This document shows, in pieces, positions 1-63,798 of a stretch of 64,000 nt of DNA (position 1 is the first letter of the stretch; each line of letters opens with the position of its first letter). The notes under the pieces were generated by a model, which worked only from the letters and a program-made list of their open reading frames with translations, searched no databases and had not been told where the DNA came from. Source of the stretch: Candidatus Eiseniibacteriota bacterium (GTDB lineage Bacteria > Eisenbacteria > RBG-16-71-46 > CAIMUX01 > VGJL01); NCBI GenBank assembly GCA_041946735.1, contig JBHGAY010000027.1:1-64000 (forward strand), read 5' to 3'. The position numbers and the translations under genes were made by a program.

Positions 1-545
1 GCCCGGTAGAGAATCGCCGCCTCCTGCAGCGCGCCGGCGACGGCCGGATCGCACGCGCCGGCCGCGAGGGCAAGGAGCGCTTCGGCCTGCTCGCGCATGC
101 GTGCCGTATCGTCCGGGCCGCTTCGCGCGAGGCGCGAGGCGATTTCGTCGAGCCCGTGCAGCATCGCTTCGCAGTCCGCGCCGCCGGCCTCGACCATCCC
201 TGCGGGCTGCGCATCGGCCCGCTTCTGCTTCCCGGCCTTCGCCGCCTTCGCCGCGGGCGTCGCCGCCCTCGTTTCCGCGGCCGCCGGACCCGCGCCGCCC
301 GCGCTCTTCGTCCGCTTCTCGATCGCGCAGCGCAGAGTGTCTCGCGCCTCCTCCGCCACCCTCTCCCGAGCCGGATCCTGCGCGCCATCCGCCAGTCCTC
401 GAGCGGCGCGCATGGCGTCGACGAGGCGCTGGAGCCACCGCTTGTCGGCCGGCTTCATCTCCTGGCGGACGATCGAAAGCGCTTCGAGGGAGAGGTCGAG
501 AAGCTGAGCGAGCAGCGTTGCCGGTTCGGGGCGTTCCTTCCTCAT
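1..545 (-). CDS. Partial gene running off the left edge; N-terminus of a probable chemotaxis protein (possibly CheA)
   Basis: ATG at 545 preceded by AGGAGG. Open to the window edge (MRKERPEPATLLAQLLDLSLEALSIV...), helical and Ala-rich. Lies downstream of cheY-cheX. Identity rests on context only. Confidence 0.5.
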   Translation of the reverse strand, partial: MRKERPEPATLLAQLLDLSLEALSIVRQEMKPADKRWLQRLVDAMRAARGLADGAQDPARERVAEEARDTLRCAIEKRTKSAGGAGPAAAETRAATPAAKAAKAGKQKRADAQPAGMVEAGGADCEAMLHGLDEIASRLARSGPDDTARMREQAEALLALAAGACDPAVAGALQEAAILYR

Positions 546-757
546 CGAACCCTCCTGGTCGGGAGCGGGCGCGACAGCACGAGGCTCGAGCGCATGAGGC
601 GGGCGACCCGCGGCGCGAAAGCTCCCCGGTGTAGGATCGGTCGGCCAGGAGAAGGACTTGAACGGAAGGGAAGGGGCGGAATGGACGGGCGGGACGGGAC
701 GGGTCGGAGCGGGGCGGCGCCGGAAACCTTCTGGGCGCCGCCCCGCCTCGATCTCAC
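542..757 (-). CDS. Putative 71-aa bridging mini-ORF between cheX and the next gene
   Basis: GTG 757-755 overlaps the cheX TGA (756-754). Its TGA 544-542 overlaps the next ATG (545-543). No homology recognised. Confidence 0.3.
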   Translation of the reverse strand: MRSRRGGAQKVSGAAPLRPVPSRPSIPPLPFRSSPSPGRPILHRGAFAPRVARLMRSSLVLSRPLPTRRVR

Positions 758-1251
758 TTCTTCGGTCTGGCCACCTGCAGCCCGAGCCACATCTCGCCTT
801 GAGGCAGGCGGAAGCGGTAGCGCGTCGAGCGGACGGCTCCAGGCGGGATCACGTTCATCTGGTTGCCGCGCGCGACGGTCGGCAGCGACATCTTCACCTT
901 CACACCGTTGCGATCGAGCTGCGCGACCAGGTCCCCGGCGAGCACGTTCGCCAACTCGCCGACGACGTCCCCCATGTCGGAGCTTTCGAACGGGATCTCG
1001 AAGCCGGCGAACTTGCACGCGAGCTGTTCCGCGGTCTGCTGCGGGAAGCCGAGCGTGACCGACCAGGACAGATCGCCCACGACCGCGATGATCCCAAGGA
1101 CGTTGGAGGCGCTCGCCGCCTCCGCCGACTCCCCGGCGAACACCGGCGACTCGCCGCAGATGGCTCCGAAGGTCGCCTCGACCGACTTCAGCAGCGCGTC
1201 TCGATGCGGGGAGGAGAGGCTCTCCTCCGGAATCACTTGCGTCTCGGCCAT
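754..1251 (-). CDS. cheX: Chemotaxis phosphatase CheX
   Basis: GIIAVVGD...VTLGFP, DVVGELANVLAG (E-x-x-N catalytic motif), MSLPTVARG. Adjacent to cheY. Confidence 0.85.
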   Translation of the reverse strand: MAETQVIPEESLSSPHRDALLKSVEATFGAICGESPVFAGESAEAASASNVLGIIAVVGDLSWSVTLGFPQQTAEQLACKFAGFEIPFESSDMGDVVGELANVLAGDLVAQLDRNGVKVKMSLPTVARGNQMNVIPPGAVRSTRYRFRLPQGEMWLGLQVARPKK

Positions 1252-1270
1252 CGTTCCCCCTCTTCCCGGC

Positions 1271-1708
1271 TCAGCCGCCGACCAGCTTGTTGAACAGCCC
1301 ACCGCCGGAACCCTTCTTTTGCTCCTCCAGCTCGTCGAAGACAGGCCCGAGCTTCTGGATCAGGTAGTCGACGGTGAACGGCTTTGAGATGAAGGCGTTC
1401 GCTCCCGCCTCGTCGAGCGCCTCCTCCATCTTGGCGATCGTCTTCTCGCTCGTGACCATGACGATCGGGATGTGGTCCGTCTTGTCCATCGCGCGGACTT
1501 CGCGGACGAAATCGACTCCGCTCATGTTGGGCATGTTCCAGTCGGCGAAGACGATGTCGATCTTCTTCGGATGGAACTTCCCGAGCGCGTCCTGTCCGTC
1601 TCCCGCCTCGGTGAAATCGAACTCGGCGAGGCCGGTCTTCTTCAACGACTCCATCACCATCGTCCGCATCACCTTCGAGTCGTCGATCACCATTGCCCGC
1701 AGCTTCAT
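1271..1708 (-). CDS. cheY: CheY-like single-domain response regulator with a C-terminal extension
   Basis: VIDDS..MR, FADWNMPNMSG, VMVTSE, FISKPF motifs. GGAGG RBS before ATG 1708. Confidence 0.85.
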   Translation of the reverse strand: MKLRAMVIDDSKVMRTMVMESLKKTGLAEFDFTEAGDGQDALGKFHPKKIDIVFADWNMPNMSGVDFVREVRAMDKTDHIPIVMVTSEKTIAKMEEALDEAGANAFISKPFTVDYLIQKLGPVFDELEEQKKGSGGGLFNKLVGG

Positions 1709-1908
1709 CGCTTCGCACCTCCCTGCGGCATCGCGGTCGGTTCCTGTCGGCGCCGGGCGCCGAATCGGTCGAGCGGCGGCCGGAGTCCCTCGAGCCCGCG
1801 CCGGCCGGCTTCCACGGATCCTTCGCTCGGCGCGTGCTCGATCTTGAGAGCAATTCGTCGCTCGAGCGGGGACGGATCGAAGGGGCGGCTCTCCTCGATG
1901 CGGGAAGC

Positions 1909-1936
1909 TAAAGCGATGCAACGGACAGGCCGATAG
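1909..1936 (+). promoter_or_regulatory. Sigma-28 (FliA/SigD)-type promoter for motAB
   Basis: TAAA (1909-1912)-N16-GCCGATAG (1929-1936), matching the TAAA-N15/16-GCCGATA(A/T) consensus, 85 nt upstream of motA. Confidence 0.7.
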
Positions 1937-2021
1937 GGACATGGGCGCCCGCCGGATTCCCCGGCGGCCGCGCGCCACCCCGCGAGTCGAAGGTTCGGGG
2001 ATCAAGGAACGGGAATCTCGC

Positions 2022-2936
2022 ATGGCTGCGATCATCGGCCTGCTCGTCGTCATCGGTTCCGTCCTCGGCGGTTTCACGATCGCCGGGGGGAAGATCCCTG
2101 CCCTCTTCCACATTTCCGAGTTCATCGTCGTCGGCGGGACGGCGTTCGGGACGATGTTCGTCTCCACTCCTCCCGCGGTCCTCAAGGTGCTCGGGAGCAA
2201 AGTGCTGTCACTCGCCGCCCCGTCCCCGTTCAACAAGAAGCTCTACCTCGAAGCGTTGAAGATGCTCTTCGAGCTGTTCCAGATCGCGCACCGCGACGGC
2301 CTGGTCGCGATCGAGAGTCACATCGAGAATCCCGGGAAGAGCGCGCTCTTCAAGAAGTACCCGATCGTGCTGCGCCACCCGCACGCGGTCACCTTCCTGT
2401 GCGACTCGCTGCGTCTCGTCCTGCTCGGGAGCGTTCCGCCCCACGATCTCGAGATGATGATGGACAACGAGATCGAGGTGCATCACGAGCAGGAACTGCG
2501 CCCGGCGGCCGCCCTCGCGAAGGTGAGCGACGCGCTCCCCGGCATCGGAATCGTCGCGGCGGTGCTCGGCATCGTCGTCACCATGAGCGCGATCAACGGG
2601 CCGATCGAGCAGATCGGAGAGCACGTCGCGGCCGCGCTGACCGGGACCTTCCTCGGCGTGCTGCTCGCCTACGGCTTCGTCGGACCGATCGCGACCGGCA
2701 TGGAGCATGCGAGCGCGGCGGAAGTGCGCTTCTACCATTTCATCAAGGCGAGCGTCGTCGCCGTGGCCAAGGGAGGGACGCCGATCGTCGCGGTCGAGTT
2801 CGCGCGCCGCTCGATCTTCAGCGGGGACCGACCGACGTTCCTCGAGATGGAAGCGGCCTGCAAGCGGCTGAAGGCGAAGCCGCAGAGCGGCGGAGCGACG
2901 GGCGCCGGGAGCGACGCGGCGCGGGCGGCGGCCTGA
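2022..2936 (+). CDS. motA: Flagellar stator protein MotA
   Basis: N-terminal TM hairpin, RDGLVAIESHIENP, DALPGIGIVAAVLGIVVTM, ALTGTFLGVLLAYGFVGP, AVEFARRSI. Confidence 0.95.
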   Translation: MAAIIGLLVVIGSVLGGFTIAGGKIPALFHISEFIVVGGTAFGTMFVSTPPAVLKVLGSKVLSLAAPSPFNKKLYLEALKMLFELFQIAHRDGLVAIESHIENPGKSALFKKYPIVLRHPHAVTFLCDSLRLVLLGSVPPHDLEMMMDNEIEVHHEQELRPAAALAKVSDALPGIGIVAAVLGIVVTMSAINGPIEQIGEHVAAALTGTFLGVLLAYGFVGPIATGMEHASAAEVRFYHFIKASVVAVAKGGTPIVAVEFARRSIFSGDRPTFLEMEAACKRLKAKPQSGGATGAGSDAARAAA

Positions 2937-3763
2937 TGAACAAGAGCCGGGAAGCCCCGATCCAGATCGTGGTGCGCAAGAAGCGCCACACCGGCGGGCA
3001 TCACGGCGGCGCGTGGAAGGTCGCGCTCGCCGACTTCATGACCGCCATGTTCTCGCTTTTCCTCGTCCTCTGGCTCGTCAACCAGTCGTCCGACGTGAAG
3101 GCGGCGATCGCCGGGTACTTCGCCGATCCGCTGGGGCGCAGCAACGAGTCGGGCAGCTCGATCGTCCCGGGAGAGGGGGCGCCGCTGAACCAGATGCGAA
3201 TGCGCAGCCAGTCGGACGTCCTGGACATGCAGCGCGACATGCTGCGGCAGAAGGGGCGCGAGCTGGAGAACCGCCTCGCCCAGGCTCCTGATCTCGAGTC
3301 GGTCCGCCCCTACGTGAAGATCGAGATGACGGAGGATGGTCTGAGGATCGAGCTGATGGAGAGCCCGGGAGGGATCTTCTTCGAGAGCGGGAACGCGGTC
3401 CCTTCGCCGCGGGGCGCCGAAGTGCTCGCTCTGCTCGGCTCAGAACTGGGGACCCTGCCGAACTCAGTCCGGATCGAAGGGCACACCGACGCCTACCCCT
3501 ACCGGGGCGACGGCAGCTACACGAACTGGGAGCTCTCGGCCGATCGCGCGAATACGGCCCGCCGGATCCTGACGGGCAACGGGATGCGGGAGGGGCAGGT
3601 GACGCAGGTCATCGGCCTCGCCGACCGCCAGCCGCGGGAAGGCGCCGATCCGTATGACGCGCTCAACCGCCGCATCACGATCACGATGCTGCTCGGAGGC
3701 GAGATCTCGCCACCCCAGAAGCCGGCCGATGTGCTGCGCCATTCGAGGACCAGCGCCGGATGA
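2936..3763 (+). CDS. motB: Flagellar stator protein MotB
   Basis: HHGGAWKVALADFMTAMFSLFLVLWL (essential Asp), OmpA-like EGHTD...NWELSADRAN...NRRI. TGATG overlap with motA. Confidence 0.95.
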   Translation: MNKSREAPIQIVVRKKRHTGGHHGGAWKVALADFMTAMFSLFLVLWLVNQSSDVKAAIAGYFADPLGRSNESGSSIVPGEGAPLNQMRMRSQSDVLDMQRDMLRQKGRELENRLAQAPDLESVRPYVKIEMTEDGLRIELMESPGGIFFESGNAVPSPRGAEVLALLGSELGTLPNSVRIEGHTDAYPYRGDGSYTNWELSADRANTARRILTGNGMREGQVTQVIGLADRQPREGADPYDALNRRITITMLLGGEISPPQKPADVLRHSRTSAG

Positions 3764-5004
3764 CCAGCCTGCCGGTCCTGCTGCTGATCGACGAGAGCGG
3801 CGGCTCGCTCGGGCGGTGCCGGCACCAGCTCGAGGAACGCGCGCGCATCCTGATGGCGGCAAGCTTCGAGGAGGGAATCCGGGCCGCCGCGCAGTTTCAT
3901 CCGCAGCTCATCGTCGCGGCGAGCGAAGGGGAAGAAGGGACGGAACAAGCGCTGCTCGGCTTCTGCCGGGACCTTCACGCCGACCCGCTCCTCCGCGACA
4001 TCCCGCTGGTCGTCGTCGCCCCGCCGATGGCGATCGAATTCAAGCAATGCGCGATGTCGCTGGGGGTCGACGACTTCCTCGCCCGGCCCGTGGCGCCACC
4101 CGACCTCTTGGCGAAGCTGCAGTTTGCCGTCCGGCTCGCGCGGCTTCAGGAGGAGCGTGACGCGGCGGTGGGCGAAGCGGGACTGCGGGGCCGCGAGTCG
4201 CTCCGCAGCGCCAAGCCGGTCCTCCAGCTCCTCGAGAAGATGCTGGAGATGCGGATTCCGGGCTCTTCGGCGCGCGCCCGCCGCGTCGCCGCCCTCGCCC
4301 GGCGGGTCGCATGGCGCTTCGAGGTCCCGGCCGAGTACCTGCCGGGGCTCGAGATCGGCGCACGGCTGCACGCTCTCGGCCACATCCTCGTTCCTCCCTC
4401 GGCGGCTGCGGCGAGCGGTCAGGACGACGAGGACGAAGACCAGGGCGGCCGCTTCGCTTCGGGCGGCTTCGAAAGCCGCCACAGCGGCGGATGGCAGCAC
4501 ATCCTGGCGTCCCGCTCCCTGCTGCGCGAGATCCCCGGCATGGAAGAGACGGCGGACATGATCGGGGCGATCTACGAGAACTGGGACGGCACGGGCGTTC
4601 CTTCACGGATGCTGCGCGGGCAGATCCCGCTGCGCTCGCGGATCCTTCGCGTGCTGATCGACCTCTTCGACCGCATGGACCGCCCGCCCTACCCTCGCTG
4701 CACGGACGCGCTCTCGCAGATCGTCGAGCAGTCGGGGACGCGCTACGACCCGATGGTGGTCGTGCACCTTCAGATGATTCTGCGCGATCCGGCTCATCGC
4801 CAGGAACGCCTCACGAAGGCGCGCGTGCACGTCACGCAGCTCGAGGAGGGAATGGTGCTCGCGGAGGATCTCGTCACGAACTCCGGCGTGAAGCTTCTCT
4901 CGCGCGGCGCCTGCCTCACTCAGGCCAGCATCAAGACGATCCTCGGGCGCCAGCGCTTCGACCCGATCGTGAGCGACGTGGTCGTCCATCGCCCCGCCGC
5001 CTGA
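3760..5004 (+). CDS. REC + HD-GYP-like protein, both domains degenerate
   Basis: REC fold (LLLIDE...DDFLARP). HD-GYP-like ARLHALGH, YENWDGTGVP, IPLRSRIL, SGTRYDP. C-terminal LEEGMVLAEDL module. ATGA overlap with motB. Confidence 0.8.
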   Translation: MTSLPVLLLIDESGGSLGRCRHQLEERARILMAASFEEGIRAAAQFHPQLIVAASEGEEGTEQALLGFCRDLHADPLLRDIPLVVVAPPMAIEFKQCAMSLGVDDFLARPVAPPDLLAKLQFAVRLARLQEERDAAVGEAGLRGRESLRSAKPVLQLLEKMLEMRIPGSSARARRVAALARRVAWRFEVPAEYLPGLEIGARLHALGHILVPPSAAAASGQDDEDEDQGGRFASGGFESRHSGGWQHILASRSLLREIPGMEETADMIGAIYENWDGTGVPSRMLRGQIPLRSRILRVLIDLFDRMDRPPYPRCTDALSQIVEQSGTRYDPMVVVHLQMILRDPAHRQERLTKARVHVTQLEEGMVLAEDLVTNSGVKLLSRGACLTQASIKTILGRQRFDPIVSDVVVHRPAA

Positions 5005-5163
5005 TCTTCCGCCCCGCTTGCGCTAAGGTTTCCGGCGCTTTCGACCGGCGGCGGGATGCGCCCGCGCCGCCGTGCCCCGTGCCACCATGCCCCATGCCGC
5101 GGTGCGTTCGTCCGTCCGTGCTTCCCGTTTCGTCATGAAGCGATTTCCATCCGCCTCGTCCTC

Positions 5164-5204
5164 AGAAAGAGATGGTGAATGCGAATTCATGGTCTTTTTT
5201 GTTT
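5164..5204 (+). terminator. Probable intrinsic terminator after the motAB operon
   Basis: AGAAAGAGAT-G-GTGAAT-GCGA-ATTCAT-G-GTCTTTTTTGTTT: GNRA-capped hairpin followed by a U-tract. Confidence 0.5.
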
Positions 5205-5235
5205 CATCCGTCCGTGACTGGGCTACGGTGGGGGC

Positions 5236-5360
5236 GTTGTGAATTCGGGAGCAAGCACGCATGGCAGCCCCCCTGTGCGAAACCGGAGGGGCGGACGGGC
5301 AGCAAGAGAAGAGCCTGCGTCCCTCCGGTACGCACGTTTCGGGGCCCCGGATTCACGGCA
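5236..5360 (+). ncRNA. Candidate structured RNA (long bulged hairpin), family not recognised
   Basis: GTGAATTCGGG (5239-49) pairs with CCCGGATTCAC (5346-56); GTGCG (5275-79) with CGCAC (5331-35); ACCGGAGGG (5282-90) with CCCTCCGGT (5321-29). G-U pairs favour the + strand. Confidence 0.3.
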
Positions 5361-5711
5361 GATTCGGTCCCGTTCCTTCGAAGCGCTGGTTGAGTGGCGG
5401 GAAGAAGCGAGTCGACCGGCGGTGTTTCGATCCAAGGGACGCCAGGGGCTCGAGCCGTTCGACAGACAACCCCGAAGAGGAGACGATGGCCAGGGGGTGT
5501 TCCGGTCAGACAGGCAGAGGAGGTGCTTGCATGAGCCGGCTCCCCGATGGCGCACGGTCCCTGGGAACGCGCCAGCCCGCCTGCGACCCTGTTCTCGATC
5601 GCTGATCGAACGCGGATAGCCCGCCCCTTTGTGAGCGGGTCTGCGCCTCCCGTGGCCTAGGTCACGATGGTGCGGACCCGCTCGAACTGTTTGCACAGTT
5701 CATCCAGTCCG

Positions 5712-6587
5712 CTACGGAAGCGAGACGAGTAGCAGGCCGGCGAACGCGAGGATCGCCGCCGCGATCTTCCTCCGCGTCGCTCTTTCTCCGAGTAGCAGGA
5801 TCGCGAAGAGCAGGATGAAGATCGTGGAGGACTGATTGAGGATCGCCGCCACGCTCGCCATCGTGTACTTCATCCCCGCGATCCAAAAGACGAGCGAGAG
5901 ATACGACCCGAGGACGGTCCCCGGGACGGTGTGCCGCCAGACGCGCGAGGGGCGGAACACCGACAGGATCCGGGCGCGGTCGCGCGACGCGAGCGCCGCC
6001 CCGAGCAGGAAAACGACCCCGGCCGCCTGTCTCACCAGCGCCACCCAGAAGACCGGCGAGCGATTCAAGACCGGCTTGACGATGACGATCCCGATCGCGA
6101 GGAGGACCAAGCCGGCGATACCGATCGCGATCCCCTCGATCAGCTGCGCGCGCGTCTGCCCCCGCGGCGGCGTCAGCGTCGCCGACAGGAGGATCGCCGC
6201 CATGATGAGGAGCATCCCGGCGATGTCGCGCACGCCCACCCGCTCCCCGAGCAGCAGAAACGCCAGCAGGACGGTGACCGGCGCGTAGAAGGTGTCGACG
6301 ATCGCCGTCACCCCGGCTCCGATCAGGTTCAGGCTCTTGTGGAACAGCGTGTCGGACAGAGCGATGCCGATGACGCCGCTGGCGATGAGGTAGGCGAAGT
6401 CCTGCGCCGGCGCATGCCGGAACGGATCGACGCCGGCGATGACGCAGGTGAGAAACAAGAGCGGCAGGCTGAACCCGACGCGGAAGAGGTTCAGCGCGAA
6501 CGGCGGCACGCTCTCCCCTGCCCGCTTGAGGAAGACGACGGCCAGGCCCCAGATGATCGCGCAGATCACTGCGTACAGCTCGCCCAA
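5712..6587 (-). CDS. EamA/DMT family inner-membrane transporter
   Basis: About 10 hydrophobic helices in two repeats (LLLGERV.../LLLGERAT...). TTG start after GGAGGAGG. Confidence 0.9.
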   Translation of the reverse strand: MGELYAVICAIIWGLAVVFLKRAGESVPPFALNLFRVGFSLPLLFLTCVIAGVDPFRHAPAQDFAYLIASGVIGIALSDTLFHKSLNLIGAGVTAIVDTFYAPVTVLLAFLLLGERVGVRDIAGMLLIMAAILLSATLTPPRGQTRAQLIEGIAIGIAGLVLLAIGIVIVKPVLNRSPVFWVALVRQAAGVVFLLGAALASRDRARILSVFRPSRVWRHTVPGTVLGSYLSLVFWIAGMKYTMASVAAILNQSSTIFILLFAILLLGERATRRKIAAAILAFAGLLLVSLP

Positions 6588-7027
6588 GCCCCGGCCTCCT
6601 CCCTCCCTGTCGATGCGACCGGCGCCGCCCGGCGCCGGGGCGCCCGCTCTGCGCTTGCGCCGCACAGGGGGATCGAGCCGGCGCGACGCGCCGCGTGCCA
6701 CTCTACGGGCGTGAAGCGGGCCCGGCAACGGTCCTAGGGTTCCTGCGGTATGCCTCAATGGCCCGGACCGCTTGCCGGAAGCCGCTTACGTCGCTCGGCT
6801 GCTACGGCCTGTTTGCCTTGGCCCGCTTGCGCCCCGGCTGCTCGCCGTGCGCGCGGCGGGCGCGCGGCGGGCGCGCGGCGGAGTAACAGTTGCGGAATGC
6901 GCCCGAAAAGCCGACCATGGATGCGGTGCTTCCAGGGGGGAGGCGCTGCATGCTTCCAGCGGGAGGCGCTGCACGGGGTGGCTGAGCCGATCGGTCCGCC
7001 GCGATCGATCCAGACCGGGAGGGGATC

Positions 7028-8260
7028 ATGAAAACCGGCCGCGAAGAAGCGCCGCAGAAGGTCGCAGAGATCGAATGGGAGCCTCGTCTCGCCAAGCGTG
7101 TCGCCGGGATGAAGAGCTCGGTGATCCGCGAGCTCTTGAAGCTCACCGAGCAGCCCGACATCATCTCGTTCGCCGGAGGTCTGCCCGCTCCCGAGTTCTT
7201 CCCGATCCGTGAGTTCGAGGAGGGAGCGATGCACGTGCTGCGCAGCGCGGGTCCGCGTGCGCTGCAGTACAGCACGACCGAAGGTTTTCCGCCGCTTCGC
7301 CAGTGGCTCGCCGAGGCGATGGCGAAGTACCACATCGAGGTCACTCCCGACAACATCCTGATGACGAACGGCTCGCAGCAGGCGCTCGACCTGATCGGCA
7401 AGCTGTTCGTCGAGCCGGGGAGCTGCGTCCTGACGAGCGCCCCGACCTACCTCGGCGCGCTCCAGGCGTGGAACTCCTACGAGGCGTGCTACGAGACGGT
7501 CGACCAGGATGACGACGGAATCCTGATCGACCGGCTCCGGGAGACGCTCAAGCGCGTCTCGAAGCCCCGGATGTTCTACGTCCTGCCGAACTTCCAGAAC
7601 CCTGGCGGCTCCACGATGCCCCTCGACCGGCGCGAGGAGCTGGTCCGGATCGCCCGCGAGTACGACCTGATCCTGATCGAGGACGATCCCTACGGGGAGC
7701 TGCGTTACGAAGGGGAGGACGTGACGCCGATCTACCGGCTCGCTCCCGAGCGGACGATCTACCTCAGCACCTTCTCCAAGACGCTCGCTCCCGGGATCCG
7801 GCTCGGATGGATCGTCGCGCCGCAGCCGATCATCCGCCGCTTCGTGCAGGCGAAGCAGGGGGCCGACCTCAACACGGGGATCCTGGTCCAGATGCTCGCC
7901 AACGACATCTGCCAGCGCGGGATCCTGAAGTCGCACGTCAAGAAGCTGCGCGGCGTCTACCGCGAGCGGCGCGACACAATGCTGGCGGCGCTCGAGGAAT
8001 ACTGGCCGTCGGGCTGCTCCTGGACGCGTCCGGCGGGCGGGCTGTTCCTCTGGGCAAAGGTGCCGGAGAAGATCGACACGAAGGATCTGCTCGTGCAGGC
8101 GGTCGAGAAGAAGGTCGCGTTCGTCCCCGGGATGGCGTTCTACCCGGGCGAGAGCGGCGGCCACAACGCGATGCGCCTGAACTTCTCCAACGCGACGGTC
8201 GAGCAGATCCGCGAGGGGATCCGCAGGCTGGGCGAAGCGATCCGCGTGTCGCTGCGCTGA
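7028..8260 (+). CDS. PLP-dependent aminotransferase class I/II (ARO8/LysN-like)
   Basis: ISFAGGLP, NGSQQALDL, PNFQNPGG, EDDPYGEL, STFSKTLAPGIRLGW, MRLNFS. Confidence 0.92.
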   Translation: MKTGREEAPQKVAEIEWEPRLAKRVAGMKSSVIRELLKLTEQPDIISFAGGLPAPEFFPIREFEEGAMHVLRSAGPRALQYSTTEGFPPLRQWLAEAMAKYHIEVTPDNILMTNGSQQALDLIGKLFVEPGSCVLTSAPTYLGALQAWNSYEACYETVDQDDDGILIDRLRETLKRVSKPRMFYVLPNFQNPGGSTMPLDRREELVRIAREYDLILIEDDPYGELRYEGEDVTPIYRLAPERTIYLSTFSKTLAPGIRLGWIVAPQPIIRRFVQAKQGADLNTGILVQMLANDICQRGILKSHVKKLRGVYRERRDTMLAALEEYWPSGCSWTRPAGGLFLWAKVPEKIDTKDLLVQAVEKKVAFVPGMAFYPGESGGHNAMRLNFSNATVEQIREGIRRLGEAIRVSLR

Positions 8261-8371
8261 CCTGGGCCGCCGCCACCCTTCCGTCTCGCTTTCCCGGCCG
8301 CCGGGCCTTCTTCGGAGGGTCCGGCGGCCTCGCGCATCTCAGCGGGGCAGTGTCTGAGCGGCGCCGTTACG

Positions 8372-10714
8372 TCAGCGCGGCCGCATCAGCACGATGGTGA
8401 TGTCGTCCGCCTGCGGCGTTCCCTCGGAGAAGTCCTGCACCCGCTCGACGATCCCTTGGAGGATGTCGGAGCAAGGAGTCCCGTCGGCGAGACGGAGGAA
8501 CTCGGCGAGCCGGTCGGAGCCGAAGAAGTCCCCGTCGACGTTGCGCGCCTCCGTTACGCCGTCGGTGAAGACGGCCAAGAGCGAGCCGCGCTCGAGGGTG
8601 GCCTCACCCTCCTCGTAGACGATCTGCGGGAGCATTCCGAGGATCAGGCCTCCCCCGGTCATCTCCACGATCTCGCCGGTGGTCTTTCGGACGAGCGGAG
8701 GATCGTGCCCGGCGTTCGCGTAGCGGATCCGCCCGGTGGCGGGATCGAGCAGCCCCAGGAAGGCGGTGATGAACTTACCCGGGTCGACGCTCTGGTGGAT
8801 GAAGCGATTCAGGCGGGCGAGCACTTCCGCCGGCCCAAGGCCCGCCAGGTCCTGCGTGCGCAGCGACGCTCGGAAGCTCGACATCAGGAGGGCGGCCGGG
8901 GCGCCCTTGCCGGAGACGTCGGCGACCGCGATCCCGACGAGTCCGTTGTCGAGGACGAGGTAGTCGAAGTAGTCGCCCCCCACCTCGCGCGCGGGCATGC
9001 TGATCCCCGCCAGCTCCACTCGCTCGAGGTCGGGCGGGCCGGACGGCAGCAGGCGGTTCTGGATCAGGCGGGCGAGCCGCAGCTCCTCCTCGAGCCGCTG
9101 CGACTCCCGCTCGATGTCGCGGCTCTTCTCGAGATCCTCGGCCATCTCGTTGAAGGAGCGGGCGACCGCCCACAGCTCGTCGTTGCCGTCGATCGGGATC
9201 CGGTGCTCGAAATGCCCGGCACGCAGAGCCTGCGTTCCGTCGGTCAGCGCGCGGACCGCGCCGGTGATCGACCGCGCCATGCCGATCACCATGACGACCG
9301 TCACCCAGATCGCGCCGAGCAACAGCACAGCAAGAAGCCCCAGGACGATCAGCGCCATCGTCGCGATCGGATTCTCCCGAGCGATCGGGATGAGCGCGAG
9401 CAGCGGCTCGGTGAAGTCGGCCGAGGAGGTGACCGGGATGCTCGAGAGCCTGAAGCCGTCTCCGGCGAGCCGCAGAGCGGGAATGATCGCGCCGCCGGGG
9501 AGCCGGCTCGAGTCGGTCTCGCGCGGGCCGACCGAGCGGCCGCGCTCCGGCCGGGTCGTCTTCGCATCGTCCTCTTCGCTGATCCGCACGCCTCCGCCCT
9601 CGCGCATCACGGTGACCTGGGGGCTCAGGCGGATCCGCGCCCCGACGATCTCGCTCACTCCCGACATCCAGAGCGAGTCGATCGGCGCGAGCGCCTCGGC
9701 GCGGATCCTCTGACCTTCGAGGACCGTGTCGATCCGGGCGCGGAGGAAGATCGTCCGCCCATCGAAGAGGAGCGGGTAGTCGCTCGAAGACGCTTCGACG
9801 GCGAGCAGCGAGTCGGGCGCGAAGGGGAGGGCGGGGCCGAGAGCGCGCGTGGCGCCGGCCGCGCGCAGGACGATTCTCTGTCCCGGAATATCGGGACCGA
9901 ACGCGCTGATCCGCTCGAGGTCGTCGCGCTCCAGCATGCGTGTCAGGCTCTCGCGCGCCTTCTCGGAGCGGCTCTCCAGCATCCGCGCCGCGATCGATCC
10001 GCGGTAGGTGGAGAGGAAGAGCGCGCCGGTCAGCAGGATGAAGATCATGGCGAGCGCAAGCGGGACCAGCCCGGCGAGGAGGTGCGAGCCGAGGAGGCGG
10101 GCGCCGATCCGCTTGATGGAGAGATGGAGGCGGCTCGCGGCCGCCGGCGTGCCGAGGAGCGAGTAGAAGAGCCCAAGGAGCCCGGCGCTCAGCCCGAAGC
10201 TGCTCAGGCCGCGCACTCCGTCCTGCTCGAGGCCGGGGCGGTTCCAGACGACGAGGCAGAGGACCAGCGAGATCAGCCCGGTGACGGAGGCCACGAACAG
10301 GCCGAGGGACCCGAGGTTGCGCCTCCAGCGGAAGGAGGCGAGCCAGGGGAAGGCGAGGACGAGCCAGCCCGGGGAGCGGCCGAACAGTCCCGACAGCAGG
10401 AACCCGAGGATGAAGGCGGCGCCGGCGATCTTCGTCCATCGAGTCGCGAAGGATCGTCCCCAGAGGCTGAGACCGAGAATCGCGCGCAGGAAGATCGCGG
10501 CCCCGATCCACTCCACGGCCGTGGCGAGGCGCATCGACGACGGTTCCGAGGCCCAGCTCCCGCTGGCCAGGCCGATCGCCGTCGGGCCGAGCCGGGTCAA
10601 GAGAAGCCCGGCCCACCAATAGAGAAGCAGCCGCCGCAGCGAGACGTTGCGCTCGGCGCGGACCCAGAGGGCCACGACGGCGGCCCCGATCGCATAGAGA
10701 ACGATGTTCGTCAA
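8372..10714 (-). CDS. Membrane PP2C/SpoIIE (RsbU-like) phosphatase with HAMP domain
   Basis: Multiple TMs, HAMP (DELWAVARSFNEM), VGGDYFD, ADVSGKG, NAGH, FTDGVTEA, DDITIV. Confidence 0.9.
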   Translation of the reverse strand: MTNIVLYAIGAAVVALWVRAERNVSLRRLLLYWWAGLLLTRLGPTAIGLASGSWASEPSSMRLATAVEWIGAAIFLRAILGLSLWGRSFATRWTKIAGAAFILGFLLSGLFGRSPGWLVLAFPWLASFRWRRNLGSLGLFVASVTGLISLVLCLVVWNRPGLEQDGVRGLSSFGLSAGLLGLFYSLLGTPAAASRLHLSIKRIGARLLGSHLLAGLVPLALAMIFILLTGALFLSTYRGSIAARMLESRSEKARESLTRMLERDDLERISAFGPDIPGQRIVLRAAGATRALGPALPFAPDSLLAVEASSSDYPLLFDGRTIFLRARIDTVLEGQRIRAEALAPIDSLWMSGVSEIVGARIRLSPQVTVMREGGGVRISEEDDAKTTRPERGRSVGPRETDSSRLPGGAIIPALRLAGDGFRLSSIPVTSSADFTEPLLALIPIARENPIATMALIVLGLLAVLLLGAIWVTVVMVIGMARSITGAVRALTDGTQALRAGHFEHRIPIDGNDELWAVARSFNEMAEDLEKSRDIERESQRLEEELRLARLIQNRLLPSGPPDLERVELAGISMPAREVGGDYFDYLVLDNGLVGIAVADVSGKGAPAALLMSSFRASLRTQDLAGLGPAEVLARLNRFIHQSVDPGKFITAFLGLLDPATGRIRYANAGHDPPLVRKTTGEIVEMTGGGLILGMLPQIVYEEGEATLERGSLLAVFTDGVTEARNVDGDFFGSDRLAEFLRLADGTPCSDILQGIVERVQDFSEGTPQADDITIVLMRPR

Positions 10715-10803
10715 GCGGCCTCCGGGCGGTCGATCGCGCGTCCCGCGGATGCCGGAACCCTCCCGGCGACCGCGCGACGGAGGGCGAGGCGGGGCGGGAT
10801 CAC
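10711..10803 (-). CDS. Putative 30-aa bridging mini-ORF, ispF to PP2C
   Basis: GTG 10803 overlaps the ispF TGA. Its TGA 10713-10711 overlaps the PP2C TTG at 10714. Confidence 0.35.
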   Translation of the reverse strand: MIPPRLALRRAVAGRVPASAGRAIDRPEAA

Positions 10804-11336
10804 GGGGCGATCCGCTCCCCGCTCGCCGGAACGAGCCTCACGATCGCCTGCGCGGCGATCGCCTCGCCCCGACCCGTCGCGTCGACTCCCTCGTTCGACT
10901 TCACCTTGACCGAGATCCGGGATGGATCGACCGAGAGCGCCGCCGCGATCCCCGAGGCCATCGCGGGGATCTGCGCCGCGAGCCGCGGGCGCTCGGCGAT
11001 CACCACCGAGTCGACGTTGCCGATCCGCATTCCGGCCTCCGAGGAGAGGAGGGCGGCGACGCGCGCCAGGAGATCGGCGCCCGTCAGTCCTTCCCACCGG
11101 GGATCGGAATCGGGAAAGAGCGAGCCGATCTCGCCCAGCCGCGCGGCGCCCAACAGCGCGTCGGCGATCGCGTGGCAGAGGACGTCGGCGTCGGAGTGGC
11201 CGGCGAGCCCCGCGTCGAAGGGGATCGCGACGGTGCCGATCCGCAGGGGACGGCCGGCGACGAGGCGATGGAGGTCGTAGCCGATGCCGACCCGGTCCTC
11301 GGCGGTAGGACCGGCGTGGCTCTTCCCGTCGTTCAC
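10800..11336 (-). CDS. ispF: 2-C-methyl-D-erythritol 2,4-cyclodiphosphate synthase
   Basis: RVGIGYDLHRL, GHSDADVLCHAIADALLGAA, FPDSDP, GRGEAIAAQA. Confidence 0.95.
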   Translation of the reverse strand: MNDGKSHAGPTAEDRVGIGYDLHRLVAGRPLRIGTVAIPFDAGLAGHSDADVLCHAIADALLGAARLGEIGSLFPDSDPRWEGLTGADLLARVAALLSSEAGMRIGNVDSVVIAERPRLAAQIPAMASGIAAALSVDPSRISVKVKSNEGVDATGRGEAIAAQAIVRLVPASGERIAP

Positions 11337-11460
11337 GCCTGCCCCCGCTCCCGGTCCTGCGCCCGGTGCTGCTCCCCGTCCTGCTCCTGCCCCCGCTCCC
11401 GGTCCTGCGCCCGCTCCCGTCCCCCGTCCTGACGATTCAACGCTTGCCTCCGCGGCTCAT
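11333..11460 (-). CDS. Two chained mini-ORFs (11460-11437, MSRGGKR; 11440-11333, 35 aa repeat-derived) linking ispD to ispF
   Basis: ATGA, TTGA and GTGA overlaps at 11460-57, 11440-37 and 11336-33. The second ORF is built on a degenerate tandem repeat (QDRERGQ). Confidence 0.35.
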
Positions 11461-19171: not shown

Positions 19172-19278
19172 CTATGCCTCCGGGGTTGGATGCCGAATGT
19201 ACCCGATCGGACTGCCCAACGGAAGCTCTGACGAGCCCGTCATGGAGCGCCCTACGCGGCGGTTCGATGCGCGCGCGC

Positions 19279-55180: not shown

Positions 55181-56904
55181 GATCTCGCCCCATCGTCCTC
55201 GCTCTCGGCGTCGCGCGTCGGCTCGGGTTCCGGCTCGCGCTCCGGCTCGGGCTCGGCCTCGGCGTCGGCCTTGCACTCTGTCTCGCGCTCTGCCTCCCCT
55301 TCCTGCCCGGCTGTTCAGAAGAAGATGGGACCGAAAGCCCATGCGCGCCGCCCGTGCCGGGGGGACGCATCGAAGGGGAGGTCCGCCTGGGGGATAAAGC
55401 CTCCGGCGTCACGATCACGGCGACGCGAGTGCCGGAGCGTCCCGGCGACGTCTTCGTCCTCGACCGCTCCACGGAGGCCGACGGAACCTTCGGGTTCGAC
55501 GTTCCGGCCGGGCGCTACATCGTCTCGTGCTTCTCCTACGGCTATGCCGAGGACGGGCTGCGCGAGGGGGCGGCTTCCGGCGAGACGCTCGTCGTCGAAC
55601 CGCTCACGTCCCCGGTGCGCGTCCGGTTCGATCTTGCGACGCTCAGCGTGGCGCTCGCCGTGCCCCCTTTCCTGGATGGTGAGACGGCGGCGATCCGCCT
55701 CGATCGAGAGACCGACCCGAACCCCGACGGCAATGCATCGAGCTACGTGAGGAAAGCCTCGATGCAGGTCGCGGGCGGGCAGGCGAACATCGTTCTCCGC
55801 GGCGTCCTCCCCGGCCGGTACCGCCTCCGCGTGGAGCTCGGCCTGCGCGTCTATTCCTGCATCGGCTGCGTGCACGCCGGCGAGTTCGTGTGGTACCCCT
55901 CGGTACGCGCTCCGGCCGAAGCGGAGTGGCTGGACTTTCCGCCGGACGGCCGCCTCGATCTCTCCATGGATCTCTCCGCTCAAGCCTCACGGATGACGGG
56001 CACGGTCGGCGGAGCGTGGAGGGAGATGCAAACGGGCCCGCCGGACATCCGCGTCTTCGACCTCGACGGCCACCTCCTCCTCGGCCCGCGAACGATCGAG
56101 GACGACGGCACCGCCGCGATCGACATGCTCTACCACGGCCCCGTGAAGGTCCTCATCGAGCACAACGGAATCGGGGCGTGGGTCGGCGGAATGGGCTTCG
56201 ACGAAGCTCTGGAGATACCGCTCGAGCCCGGCACGACCGCCACCTTCGACCACGAGGAGAGCGGCATCCTCGTGGAGACCGAGTCGTCCGAGTACCTCTG
56301 GTCCTTCGAGCCTCTCCGTGTCTTCCGAGCGGACGGGACTGAGGTCGGCCTCCTCCACACCCACATGGCGCCGGTTCCCTTCCCCATCGCCATTCCCAAT
56401 CTCGGTCCCGGCGAGTACCGGATCCGAATCGAGGGAGAGATGGGAAGCGATCCCTGGATCCCGCAGTGGTTCGACGGAGCCCTGCGGACCGAGGACGCGA
56501 CGACGATCCCGGTTTCTCGCGCCGGTGAGACGGTGCGTCGCACGATCCACTTGATCCGGGGCGCGACCATCTCAGGGACGATCCGCACCGATACCGGTCC
56601 GGACTACCGCCGCTACACGGTGTTTCTCACGTCCGCAGACGATCCGGCGATCCTCGCCTACGACTGGTCGGCGACTGCGACGGGACGGTTCGAGATGATC
56701 GGCGTGCCCGATGGCTCGTGGAAGCTCGGGATCCGAGCGACGGAGGACGATGGCGGGGACTATGCCGGCGGCGATGCCGGCGGCGCCCCGCATACGATCT
56801 GGTTCCCCGGCACGTCCGATTGGGCGGCGTCGCAGCCGATCGTGATCGCAGACCTCGAGGACGTCACCGCCGACTTCCTGGTGTCCGGCAGGCGCCCGCG
56901 CTAG
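55177..56904 (+). CDS. Paralogous lipoprotein with repeated beta-sandwich modules
   Basis: Lipobox LPGC, WYPS, WVGG, WFDG, WFPGT motifs collinear with the previous gene. ATGA overlap. Confidence 0.7.
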   Translation: MRSRPIVLALGVARRLGFRLALRLGLGLGVGLALCLALCLPFLPGCSEEDGTESPCAPPVPGGRIEGEVRLGDKASGVTITATRVPERPGDVFVLDRSTEADGTFGFDVPAGRYIVSCFSYGYAEDGLREGAASGETLVVEPLTSPVRVRFDLATLSVALAVPPFLDGETAAIRLDRETDPNPDGNASSYVRKASMQVAGGQANIVLRGVLPGRYRLRVELGLRVYSCIGCVHAGEFVWYPSVRAPAEAEWLDFPPDGRLDLSMDLSAQASRMTGTVGGAWREMQTGPPDIRVFDLDGHLLLGPRTIEDDGTAAIDMLYHGPVKVLIEHNGIGAWVGGMGFDEALEIPLEPGTTATFDHEESGILVETESSEYLWSFEPLRVFRADGTEVGLLHTHMAPVPFPIAIPNLGPGEYRIRIEGEMGSDPWIPQWFDGALRTEDATTIPVSRAGETVRRTIHLIRGATISGTIRTDTGPDYRRYTVFLTSADDPAILAYDWSATATGRFEMIGVPDGSWKLGIRATEDDGGDYAGGDAGGAPHTIWFPGTSDWAASQPIVIADLEDVTADFLVSGRRPR

Positions 56905-56960
56905 CGGACCTCGGCCCGCGCTAGCGGACGTCGGCCCGCGCTAGCGGACGTCGGCCCGCG
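56894..56960. repeat. 20-bp tandem repeat, 3.3 copies, between convergent genes
   Basis: GCCCGCGCTAGCGGAC(C/G)TCG at 56894, 56914, 56934. Confidence 0.9.
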
Positions 56961-58128
56961 CCGCGCGGAACCCGGGCAGCGCCCGCTCCACCATCCCGTC
57001 CGAGGCGGTGAGGCTCACGCGGAACCACCCGGGCACTTCGACGAAGGTCCCCGGAAGCACGAGGATCTTCTGCCGGGCGAGCACCTCCAGGAACTTCTGG
57101 TCGTCGTCGATCGGCGAGCGGACCATCACGTAGAACGTCCCCTCCGGCATCGTCGTCTCGTATCCGATCTCCCGGAGAGCGGGAACCAGGCGGTCGCGCC
57201 GCCGCTCCAGCGCTCCGACGTCGATCGAGAGCGTCTCCAGGTCCTCGATCGCGTGCTGGAGCAGGGCGTTGGGAAAGGCGTACCCGGTCGCGAGCTGCTC
57301 GATCATCAGCGACTCGCGAAACGATTCACGGTCCGGGAACGACGGCGGAACGGCGATGTAGCCGATGCGCATGCCCGGGGCCAGGAGCGTCTTGCCGTAG
57401 GAATAGGTCACGACGGTCTTGGGGATCACCTCGGCGGGACTGTGAAAGCTCCTGCCATCGAACAGGATTCGATTGTACGGCTCGTCGGAGATCAGCGTGA
57501 TCGACCGCCCGGTCCGCGCCGCGCTTCGCCGCAGCACCTCGGCCAGTTCCGTCCACGTGTCGAGCGTGTGCACCCGGCCGGACGGATTGTGAGGGCTGTT
57601 GACGATCAGCGCCGCGGTGCGCGGAGTGATCGCGCGTTCGATCGCTTCGAAGTCGATGTCGAACCTCGGCGGGGCCAGCCGAACGCGCACCGGCTCCGCC
57701 CCCGCGGCGAGAATCAGCTCCTCGTAGAAGAACCAGGGGGGAGAAAGGAAGATGACCTCCTCGCCCGGCTCGACGCTCGCCCGGATGGCAACGGCCAGAG
57801 CAGCGAAACCGCCGTTCGTCATCGCCACGTCGGCCGGATCCCACGCGAGCGCGGTCCGCCGCGCTAGTCCGCGCGCCACCGCCTCCTGGGAACGAGGCTC
57901 CGATAGCTTGTAGGCGAACCAGTCCTTGTCCTGCGGCACGATGTGCTTCTGCAAGGCCTGGACGTAGCCGGCCAGCGGCATCTCCTGCGGATTGCCCACG
58001 GCGAAGTTCGCCACCTCCGGGTCCCGGTTCAGCTCCTCGAACGGGCCCGTGAAGAAAGCCATGAAAGGAGCGATGCTCTGCCGGAGCCTCTCGCGGCGGG
58101 ACATGCCTGCGTGCGTCTTCGTTTCCAT
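56941..58128 (-). CDS. PLP-dependent aminotransferase class I/II (aspartate aminotransferase-like)
   Basis: NSPHNPSG, SDEPY, SYGKTLLAPGMRIGY, PEGTFY, FRVSL. Confidence 0.9.
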   Translation of the reverse strand: METKTHAGMSRRERLRQSIAPFMAFFTGPFEELNRDPEVANFAVGNPQEMPLAGYVQALQKHIVPQDKDWFAYKLSEPRSQEAVARGLARRTALAWDPADVAMTNGGFAALAVAIRASVEPGEEVIFLSPPWFFYEELILAAGAEPVRVRLAPPRFDIDFEAIERAITPRTAALIVNSPHNPSGRVHTLDTWTELAEVLRRSAARTGRSITLISDEPYNRILFDGRSFHSPAEVIPKTVVTYSYGKTLLAPGMRIGYIAVPPSFPDRESFRESLMIEQLATGYAFPNALLQHAIEDLETLSIDVGALERRRDRLVPALREIGYETTMPEGTFYVMVRSPIDDDQKFLEVLARQKILVLPGTFVEVPGWFRVSLTASDGMVERALPGFRAARADVR

Positions 58129-58369: not shown

Positions 58370-58422
58370 ATACGCGCCGCAATGTACTCGGGTGCCGCAG
58401 GCAACACACGAAGGAGGCCCTC

Positions 58423-62256: not shown

Positions 62257-62519
62257 CGCAGCCTCCGTGAGCGGAGCGTGAAAGCGGACGGCTCTCATCG
62301 TTGTGGGTAGTGGGTAAAGGTTAGGGCGCCGGGCGACTTCCGACAAGGTCGCAGGACCCGGCCTGGCGAAAGGATGGCCGGGGTGGAGCAGGTGCCGGCG
62401 CCGCGGCGGACTGGATGCAGTCGGGCTGGGTGCGAAGGAAGGCGCGGCGCTGCGGCTTGCGGGTAACACGCCGGTATAGCGGCAATCGGCCTTCGCGATC
62501 TCCCCTGGTTCTCGATCTT

Positions 62520-62549
62520 TCATCGTACTTCCTGCCCCTTCTTCATCAT
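62520..62549 (-). CDS. Putative 9-aa bridging mini-ORF (MMKKGQEVR)
   Basis: ATG 62549 overlaps the upstream TGA (62548-46). Its TGA 62522-20 overlaps ATG 62523, which is in frame with kaiC. Confidence 0.3.
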   Translation of the reverse strand: MMKKGQEVR

Positions 62550-63769
62550 TCCTCTAAACGGAAGTGATGGAGACGGTAGCCGTCGCGGTTGAAGCCACAG
62601 AACACGTGACGGCCGAAGCGCGCCAGGTGAGCGATGCCGCGGGCCGGCCCACGATCGATCCGCGCCGTACCGATCCGCGCGCCATTGGACGACCAGGCGG
62701 CGAGGAGTCCGGGGCGCAAGAGGCAGAGGAGCGAAGCGTCGCCTCCGGGTGGGGCAAGGACGAACGGCACGCCACCGTTGCCCCAGGCAGGCGAGGCGTC
62801 AACGAAGAAGCGCTGCAGCCGGACCGTCCCGTCGAGATCCACGCGCGCGAAGCCTCCACCTTCGAGCCGGTCCCATTCGCCGGCGGCCGCGGCGGCGGCG
62901 GAAGCGGGCTCGGGCCCGGCTGCCCAGCAGGCGGTGCCGCCATCCGAGAAGCAGCACCATGTCGGCGCGAAGCCGAGGCGCCGCTCCCAGAGCGGGCGTC
63001 CGATGGCGAGATTGAGGGGGGGCCCGGCCCCCGAGCGGACCAAAGGGACGATGAGCAAGCGATCTCCAGCGCCGATCGCAAGGAGCGAGGCATCGGACGA
63101 AACGGCGAGCGTAGAGATGAGACCGAGGTCGGTGAGATAGATCTCGCGAGGAAGTTCGGGCGCGTCGGGGGAGGCGGCGCCGGGCAGAGGAGCGTCGTGC
63201 CGAGGCACGCGAGGCGGAGTAGAGGCGGGGCGCGCGCCCGGCCGGGGAAGGGCGGCCAGCGCGCCCGAAACGAGGATGCCGGGGGTCGGAGCGTCGGGCA
63301 CGTGATAGCCCGCCGAGCCGGCGGAGACGAGCCTGTCGCCGGCGAGCGCGGCGCACGCGACGTCGCCCGCCCAGCGAGCGGCGAAGGCCGGCACGACATC
63401 TTCCGCCCCTTCGGTCCATGCAGCTGCCGCCTCGAGCAACCGCACCTTCCCGAAATGGTTCAGGAACAGCACGCGGTCGCGGGCGCCGTCGCCCGTCACA
63501 TCGTCACGCGCTCGTTCCCAGAGGAGGGCGTGCGCGTCCAGATCGAACTCCGAGGCTTCTTCGTCCTCGGGAAAGTCCGTTGCGGCGAACCGTCCCCGCC
63601 ACACGATGCGCCCGCCACCGTCGATCACGCCGAAGGAGACATTCTTCCCGAGATTGTTGCAGGCGATCCGGTCGCCGGAGACGGCGAGACGTCCGATTCC
63701 CGGCGCCTGGCGATTCTCGACCGGGCTCGTCGGGTCGGTCGCGATCGTGCCCGCGTAAGCGATCTTCAC
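62546..63769 (-). CDS. Hypothetical protein, probably beta-propeller (WD40-like)
   Basis: Blade-like segments (ISTLAVSSDASLLAIG, CCFSDGG). GTG start approximate. Confidence 0.55.
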   Translation of the reverse strand: MKIAYAGTIATDPTSPVENRQAPGIGRLAVSGDRIACNNLGKNVSFGVIDGGGRIVWRGRFAATDFPEDEEASEFDLDAHALLWERARDDVTGDGARDRVLFLNHFGKVRLLEAAAAWTEGAEDVVPAFAARWAGDVACAALAGDRLVSAGSAGYHVPDAPTPGILVSGALAALPRPGARPASTPPRVPRHDAPLPGAASPDAPELPREIYLTDLGLISTLAVSSDASLLAIGAGDRLLIVPLVRSGAGPPLNLAIGRPLWERRLGFAPTWCCFSDGGTACWAAGPEPASAAAAAAGEWDRLEGGGFARVDLDGTVRLQRFFVDASPAWGNGGVPFVLAPPGGDASLLCLLRPGLLAAWSSNGARIGTARIDRGPARGIAHLARFGRHVFCGFNRDGYRLHHFRLEE

Positions 63770-63798
63770 ACCGTCACACCCGCCTCCCCGGCCTTCAC
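63766..63798 (-). CDS. Putative 10-aa bridging mini-ORF (MKAGEAGVTV)
   Basis: GTG 63798 overlaps the upstream TGA (63797-95). Its TGA 63768-66 overlaps GTG 63769. Confidence 0.3.
   Translation of the reverse strand: MKAGEAGVTV

Follow-up and report, generated by a model that had tools for sequence, protein, structure and literature searches.

Introduction

A ribosome that has just finished a gene can restart on a start codon overlapping that gene's stop, a process known as termination-reinitiation. We describe here small open reading frames (ORFs) that seem to carry this kind of junction across spacers in a Candidatus Eiseniibacteriota bacterium, starting from a window of 64,000 nucleotides (nt; contig JBHGAY010000027.1, positions 1 to 64,000). 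An earlier note on this window had reported eight gaps between co-oriented genes, each spanned by a mini-ORF (in one case two) that started on the stop of one gene and ended with a TGA on the start of the next, and had proposed that selection keeps such bridges so that ribosomes are handed on. Bridges proved more frequent in the genome than expected by chance, in a frame-specific manner, and the frame opened at the upstream stop was shortened even where no co-oriented gene follows.

Coupling of neighbouring genes by termination-reinitiation is established and depends on an overlap or a very short gap between them (Huber et al. 2019, PMC6728339; Huber et al. 2023, PMC10666635). Each end of a bridge is likewise a same-strand stop/start overlap of 4 nt or 1 nt, and the proposed mechanism is the same, but a bridge would lead from a gene to a non-coding mini-ORF and on to the next gene, by two serial hand-overs over a spacer of 4-136 nt instead of a single one between protein genes. 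According to a 2025 review (PMC12548453), the sole role of a short ORF may be to bring a ribosome to the gene coupled to it downstream, and Korolev et al. 2016 (PMC4833913) argue for reinitiation after leader ORFs. Upstream ORFs and leaders of this kind (PMC12548453, citing Shell 2015; PMC4833913) resemble the bridges in being short and non-conserved, with an irrelevant product and an end at or near the real start. They initiate by themselves at the 5' end of the transcript, either leaderless or from a Shine-Dalgarno sequence (SD), whereas the bridges start on the preceding stop and have an SD in 25% of the cases.

Mycobacterial interspersed repetitive units (MIRUs) occur as tandem units of about 40-100 base pairs (bp). 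They insert at start codons and contain an internal ORF coupled at -4 nt (PMC12548453), an arrangement similar to that of a bridge ORF lying in inserted DNA and coupled at -4 nt to the adjacent gene; minisatellites are also found in two spacers of the window (ispD-ispF and YCII-sigma). Unlike the ORFs of MIRUs, the bridges form no dispersed repeat family, and their repeat units measure 12-48 nt. The closing half of a bridge corresponds to the ATGA context of Abrahams and Hurst 2017 (PMC5850271), who found an enrichment of A as the fourth coding base, which creates a +1 TGA following the start, discussed ATGA as a stop for misplaced ribosomes, mentioned termination after translation of the upstream gene, and reported evidence against the upstream read-through model. 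The genome studied here differs in that A after the downstream start was enriched specifically where an in-frame start codon lay on the upstream stop (50%, vs 31% otherwise). Within the open-access library searched, no work was found that had surveyed whole genomes for double-anchored bridging ORFs or for frame-specific shortening behind starts that overlap a stop.

Results

Frequency and frame of the bridges

The genome of the window (G000) is a draft of 4,889,888 bases in 72 contigs with 68.4% GC, in which the window is contig C20:1-64000. The window alone contained 246 ORFs of at least 100 amino acids (aa), and long ORFs in all six frames of such GC-rich DNA made an independent gene model necessary beyond ORF reading. 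A self-written and self-trained gene caller, based on dicodon log-odds, SD class and start-codon type and blind to bridges and overlapping small ORFs, yielded 3707 genes (87.5% coding) with ATG (69%), GTG (20%) or TTG (11%) starts and a strong SD in 35% of them. Their 2661 same-strand neighbour pairs comprised 650 overlaps (470 at -4 and 49 at -1) and 1692 gaps of 1-300 nt. A bridge was defined, for these gaps, as a single ORF whose start codon overlaps the upstream stop and whose stop codon overlaps the downstream start, which is possible only at gap lengths of 1 mod 3.

Single-ORF bridges were detected in 92 of the 1692 gaps (5.4%), and chains of two or more ORFs numbered 12, vs about 5 ± 2.2 expected. 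When the junction bases were redrawn (the base before the stop from convergent ends, the bases after the start from divergent starts) and the spacer interior was shuffled, 41.8 ± 6.3 bridges were expected (z = 8.0; 300 replicates for each null), and additional jitter of the spacer length lowered this to 35.1 ± 6.0 (z = 9.5), in agreement with the genome-wide excess that had been predicted. As a class, the bridges were about 2.2-2.6 times as frequent as expected by chance and about 40% of the individual bridges are expected by chance; the earlier note had cautioned that high GC and TGA-rich stops inflate chance matches. An excess over a shuffle of the interior only was not obtained: dinucleotide shuffles retained 87.2 ± 3.8 bridges (z = 1.2), which locates the excess in the two junction contexts and their frame, not in openness, and no purging of stops inside bridges was seen.

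Two states were then related to each other by gap length modulo three: state U, in which a start codon overlaps the upstream stop (30% of gaps), and state D, in which a stop codon overlaps the downstream start (33%). The U-D odds ratio (OR) in G000 was 2.27 (p = 2e-6) at 1 mod 3, 1.40 (not significant) at 0 mod 3 and 1.02 at 2 mod 3. The corresponding values were 3.3 (p = 2e-4), 0.77 and 1.25 in G004, which belongs to another genus of the same family (1.59 megabases [Mb] used; reciprocal-best proteins 58% identical on average), and 2.07 (p = 0.10), 1.24 and 0.70 in G009, from another family of the same order (1.2 Mb used). In a Mantel-Haenszel test over the three genomes, the OR was 2.41 for the compatible frame (p = 5.6e-10), and the two remaining frames had 1.17 and 0.99; a comparison with other frames had been suggested in the earlier note. 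Bridges numbered 27 of 515 gaps in G004, vs 14.8 ± 3.6 under the null, and 13 of 426 in G009.

In G000, all gap bins up to 150 nt showed the association, and among ATG starts with a strong SD (n = 565) there were 37 U-D junctions, vs 18.8 naively expected. The bridge fraction in the compatible frame (G000 and G004) tracked start-codon strength, with 58% for ATGA, 45% for GTGA, 42% for TTGA, 28% for CTGA and 22% for TAG. These data support the view that the frame-specific excess matches what selection on the end point of the ORF would predict.

The gap lengths of G000 were themselves uneven modulo three (same strand, 1-300 nt; 645 at 1, 564 at 2 and 483 at 0). TGA use and NTG before TGA were also raised in the 2-mod-3 class, where some true starts may be overlapping NTG codons missed by the caller.

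End points of the opened frame

The frame opened by a stop-overlapping start (F2) was traced to its first stop for gaps of 1-150 nt in G000. At 1 mod 3, it overran the next start in 36% of the junctions with an overlapping start vs 57% of those without (p = 1e-5), and at 0 mod 3 in 55% vs 82% (p = 6e-6); at 2 mod 3, where F2 is the next gene's own frame, the values were 86% vs 78%. The overrun depletion was reproduced when GTGA only was compared with CTGA only, and was replicated in G009. With the three genomes pooled, the compatible frame ended at the next start in 123 junctions with an overlapping start, in the gap in 46 and beyond the next start in 83, compared with 121, 113 and 255, respectively, without it (bridge vs in-gap OR = 2.5, p = 2e-5; bridge vs overrun OR = 3.1, p = 2e-10), the additional stops being placed on the next start codon and not earlier in the spacer. 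At 0 mod 3, where no bridge is possible, in-gap stops increased instead (OR = 3.3, p = 5e-8, pooled).

The shortening was not restricted to co-oriented genes. The median open run of the opened frame, with vs without an overlapping start, was 31 vs 50 codons at convergent ends, 24 vs 93 at 0 mod 3 and 15 vs 25 at 1 mod 3. The other two frames did not differ at convergent ends or at 1 mod 3 (p = 0.2-0.5), the exception being frame F0 at 0 mod 3 (196 vs 255 codons, p = 0.004). When GTGA and CTGA only were compared, the opened frame at convergent ends ran for 27 vs 51 codons (p = 1e-5), and the other two frames were not different in any class (p = 0.1-0.8). Spacer composition was rejected as the cause, with other frames lacking a comparable difference and gap GC being alike. 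No start calls enter at convergent ends, and the effect there arises without a downstream gene that could take up ribosomes, which makes containment the broader reading and hand-on a special case.

The result survived restriction to genes scoring at least 40 and of at least 120 aa. Loss of junctions through spurious small gene calls was rejected, there being three called genes of 80 aa or less that start at a -4 overlap, and the strong-gene result stands. The base before the stop at convergent ends was G in 20% and C in 61% for TGA (509 genes), and G in 52% and C in 34% for TAG (412 genes); GTGA looks avoided where no co-oriented gene follows, a termination-context effect being the alternative.

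Composition and repeats of the bridges

The bridge peptides look unrelated to one another, as had been noted for the window, and they also look non-coding. GC by codon position was flat (0.71/0.69/0.71 for bridges of 31-100 codons, vs 0.69/0.48/0.89 in genes), the dicodon score was negative in 36 of the 37 bridges of at least 20 codons, and 48 of the 92 were 3-15 codons long; on these coding statistics, small protein genes were rejected for nearly all bridges. A 33-codon bridge in a 94-nt gap of contig C50 (VSPSAWLPLQLAIELVILAATVRHLWRWRGEIL) had a positive coding score and a GC of 0.85 at third codon positions, and looks like a real, uncalled small membrane protein.

Descent from a dispersed repeat or mobile family was rejected, given that an all-vs-all blastn of the 64 spacers of at least 25 nt revealed one pair with a 20-nt match, and 56 of these spacers were single-copy in the genome. 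Tandem repeats were not enriched (13/55 bridge gaps vs 351/1189 other gaps, p = 0.45), and their periods were divisible by three in 9/13 vs 169/351, a trend only; the units in the window measured 12/24/48 and 14 nt. Recent duplication of the NTGA junction was also rejected as the main source, with three clear cases (six at a looser cut-off, 2.7 expected) in 104 bridge-frame junctions. All three clear duplications were in the bridge frame and none in the gap-0-mod-3 frame; a junction duplication of 26 nt on contig C40 lies, not at the fmt-rsmB junction, but in what appears to be the operon of an ABC transporter, with a solute-binding protein and a permease assigned by eye from their translations.

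Junctions of the window and their ancestry

All eight ORFs of the earlier note were present at the coordinates it gave. We counted 24 gapped same-strand junctions and four direct overlaps, where about 21 and six had been given, and seven relays among the 24: six single ORFs and the ispD-ispF chain fitted the called gene ends, and the eighth, upstream of kaiC, needs a doubtful start. The six single bridges had an overlap of 4 nt (NTGA) or 1 nt (TGATG/TAGTG) at either end, and so did each of the three joints in the chain. The 6/24 of the window, vs 5.4% over the genome, mark it as an outlier (binomial p = 0.0015). Most of the gene names proposed were supported by Pfam matches (CheX, IspF [YgbB], IspD, SpoIIE/PP2C, MurA family, SelB, sigma-70 with DUF6596, YCII, S41, KaiC and GT9), and no Pfam match was obtained for the genes called 'propeller' and 'LolA-like' or for the gene after cheX.

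Ancestry could be traced for two junctions using family relatives (among them G002, G003, G004 and G005). The 7-codon ORF between murA and selB (25546-25569, plus strand) spans a gap of 16 nt, with GTGA at the stop and ATGA at the start. Three of five family relatives have a direct ATGA overlap here, in G002 the two genes lie 22 nt apart and are joined by a 9-codon bridge that differs in sequence, and the gap of G004 is 7 nt long and of the same frame, with ATGA kept but CTGA at the stop; more distant relatives were varied. The murA ortholog of G004 (C3, about 1167205-1168468) matched as two pieces overlapping by a few bases, pointing to a frameshift there or to faulty assembly, and owing to this split match the junction is absent from the G004 ortholog table.

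The ispD-ispF chain (11333-11460, minus strand) spans 120 nt and runs from ATGA at 11460 through 7 codons to TTGA at 11440, and from there through 35 codons to GTGA at 11336, the start of ispF; a minisatellite of period 12/24/48 at 11336-11431 fills the spacer. The relatives showed overlaps of the form GTGATG (G002), TTGA (G003) and ATGA (G005), and a 1-nt gap in G004. The first mini-ORF, MSRGGKR, resembles the N-terminus of IspF in G005, MSRAAR, and is thus likely a relic of the old overlapped start. Since the relatives mostly overlap directly, the murA-selB and ispD-ispF junctions appear to have expanded in G000. The expansion of overlapped junctions proposed earlier therefore held for these two, and as a general rule ancestral direct overlap was rejected, none of the 16 non-bridge counterparts of G000 and G004 overlapping at -4 or -1. 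Orthologous junctions for the cheX, YCII-sigma, S41 and GT9 bridges were not found in the relatives' DNA examined.

Between ispF (YgbB) and a SpoIIE/HAMP (PP2C-type) gene, a 30-codon ORF (10711-10803, minus strand) crosses an 85-nt gap, with GTGA at the stop and TTGA at the start. The TTG start of the PP2C-type gene is supported by its G004 ortholog, which aligns from residue 1, and the starts of selB, ispF and PP2C all agreed with orthologs. The two genes abut in G009 (gap 0) and are separated by an extra gene in G004.

The 46-codon ORF from the YCII-domain gene to the sigma-70/DUF6596 gene (40034-40174, minus strand; gap 136 nt) starts at TAGTG, a 1-nt overlap, and ends with TGA over ATG; its spacer carries a period-12/24 repeat at 40047-40105. 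With a dicodon score of -8.9 (vs -36 and -46 in the other frames) and a GC of 0.43 at second codon positions, it is the sole bridge of the window that might encode a small acidic peptide, an ambiguous case. Downstream of the S41 peptidase gene, a 16-codon ORF (42715-42765, minus strand) extends from GTGA at the stop to TGATG at ATG 42715 over 46 nt, and the gene that follows has a strong SD (class 7) and a product without a Pfam match. The 10-codon ORF after GT9 (63766-63798, minus strand; gap 25 nt) has GTGA at both the stop and the called start; this start, at 63769, is the least certain of the seven, being a GTG without SD (class 0).

The 9-codon ORF between the 62546-63769 gene and the long KaiC frame (62520-62549, minus strand) has ATGA at the stop and at 62523. 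The caller placed the KaiC start at 62256, behind GGAGG (SD class 7), which leaves a 289-nt gap; the 89 residues that the long frame adds have a non-coding look, and residue 107 of this frame is the first within the Pfam KaiC match. This bridge is real only with the start at 62523, and is doubtful.

The longest ORF, of 71 codons (542-757, minus strand), leads from cheX to the next gene over 208 nt, with GTGA at 757-754 on the cheX stop and ATGA at 545-542. Its dicodon score was -51 (non-coding-like), a period-14 repeat lies at 663-725, and a GC hairpin of 14 bp without a T-run follows directly after the cheX stop (700-745, minus strand); the fold of the whole 221-nt spacer was no more stable than shuffles (z = 0.71). 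This bridge is most likely due to chance, because gaps above 150 nt show no genome-wide excess. No terminator-like site turned up within the three spacers covered by a pattern scan of positions 1-12500.

Two further repeat regions were observed in the window. An 871-nt gene-free stretch between divergent genes (19172-20042) holds dense short tandem repeats with periods of 11, 15 and 21-23, and a 20-nt unit repeated 3.4 times with 97% identity (56894-56961) extends over the stop of the 55354-56904 gene into its convergent neighbour.

Discussion

We propose that a ribosome ending a gene at TGA would restart on a start codon that overlaps this stop (NTGA or TGATG). In G000 and its relatives, the frame so opened would be kept from running out of frame over what follows and, where the spacer length permits, would be closed by a TGA overlapping the next gene's start, which would both halt the stray ribosome and set it on the start codon that follows. 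Bridging mini-ORFs would then be non-coding translation paths, not genes, and many may have originated when an overlapping junction grew by insertion, minisatellite or junction duplication while its former start stayed behind on the upstream stop. Roughly half to 60% of the bridges would stem from this filter or selection, and the rest would be products of chance arising from 68% GC and frequent TGA.

Judging from sequence, we give an even chance of being correct to the reading that reinitiating ribosomes are contained, and that in operons this takes the form of hand-on at the next start; no dedicated relay is needed for it to explain much of the signal. More tentatively, ribosomes of this lineage would routinely restart on any TGA-overlapping start and would have left a footprint across the genome, with the opened frames closed early everywhere, convergent ends included, GTGA avoided where no gene follows and operon frames preferentially closed on the next start, so as to form a sequence-independent relay, invisible to gene callers, that lets overlapped junctions expand without losing the hand-over. 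Containment with hand-on is a variant of known coupling mechanisms and not a new kind, and the concept has precedents.

Several observations weigh against this proposal. An SD of at least 4 bases precedes 25% of the 92 bridge starts, a share that is 17% for the NTGA of convergent ends and 68% for starts in true -4 overlaps; the genes downstream of bridges have their own SD in 70% of the cases, vs 62% of other genes, and so would not need the hand-on. The interiors of bridges were no more open than dinucleotide shuffles, the U-D association was absent at gaps of 151-300 nt in G000, and direct overlaps were absent from the 16 non-bridge counterparts of G000 and G004. Among the 224 same-strand pairs conserved between G000 and G004, ten were bridges in G000, of which two are still bridges in G004, a weak difference from the background of 6/149; strong conservation was not found. 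What the data show are the sequence statistics and the ancestry of two junctions; that the mini-ORFs are translated, and that the gene behind them gains from it, is inferred. Every statistic depends on our own gene caller, and the three genomes are kin, so that the p-values overstate independence. Ortholog starts of G000 and G004 fell within 3 residues of each other in 37% of 658 reciprocal-best pairs, and in 47% of the pairs with at least 60% identity; part of this disagreement is real N-terminal divergence, and the moderate agreement is a general caveat for individual junctions.

A dedicated relay, in which bridges are maintained since the downstream gene depends on handed-on ribosomes, and restore the coupling lost on expansion, is unlikely. 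It would account for the extra terminations on the next start codon, for the two bridges kept in G004 with other lengths and sequences (gaps of 31 to 10 and 55 to 16 nt), and for the murA-selB bridge of G002; and given the need for overlaps or very short gaps (PMC10666635), an expanded junction would lose coupling without it. Downstream genes nevertheless keep their own SD at the usual rate, SDs are rare at bridge starts, eight of the ten bridges were lost in another genus, stops were not purged from spacer interiors beyond chance, and the opened frame is likewise shortened at convergent ends, where a relay is impossible. The selection for handing on ribosomes put forward by the earlier note is matched by the frame-specific excess and not by these properties, and its expectation that related junctions overlap directly or carry a different bridge was realised at murA-selB, with little conservation in G004 overall.

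Pure chance, by which high GC and TGA as the commonest stop generate NTGA-to-NTGA frames in a window picked as extreme, is strained and improbable as a full account. Interior shuffles reproduced 87 of the 92 bridges, long gaps had no excess, and the outlying window suggests a winner's curse; a bridge in a 166-nt gap of contig C67, the sole bridge spacer with four genome copies, seems by eye to cross a transfer RNA gene and appears to be an example of a chance bridge. Chance does not, however, predict z values of 8.0-9.5 against nulls that redraw the junction bases, an association this specific to one frame, its replication in G004 with overrun depletion also in G009, or the little or no difference in other frames (F0 at 0 mod 3 excepted), which for GTGA vs CTGA was nil.

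A start-calling artefact, in which wrong downstream starts create apparent bridges, is similarly improbable, even with the moderate agreement of ortholog starts, a window start without SD (63769) and a KaiC case that hinges on start choice. The caller is blind to the base before the upstream stop and cannot create a dependence on it, the frame class of a gap is unaffected by start choice within an ORF, and the convergent-end result is free of start calls; moreover, the signal stays with strong genes only and with strong-SD ATG starts, and the selB, ispF and PP2C starts match orthologs. That bridges are unannotated small protein genes of operons with -4 overlaps on both sides is very improbable, given their flat codon-position GC, negative dicodon scores, frequent lengths of 3-15 codons and an excess equally strong at gaps of 1-30 nt, for all that the C50 bridge scores as coding and resembles a membrane helix and the ORF at 40174-40034 has a low GC at second codon positions and scores best in its own frame.

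If the footprint of containment and hand-on is real, the sequences of operon spacers would be constrained: the restart of ribosomes at gene ends would put selection on spacer length modulo three and on the single bases next to stop and start codons. The capacity of tightly overlapped junctions to absorb insertions would be accounted for, and attention would be drawn to non-coding frames that are translated and that annotation pipelines or small-protein screens take for something else. Concrete predictions follow for ribosome profiling and for single-base reporter mutations, and the footprint would offer a cheap, sequence-only readout of reinitiation frequency in uncultured bacteria.

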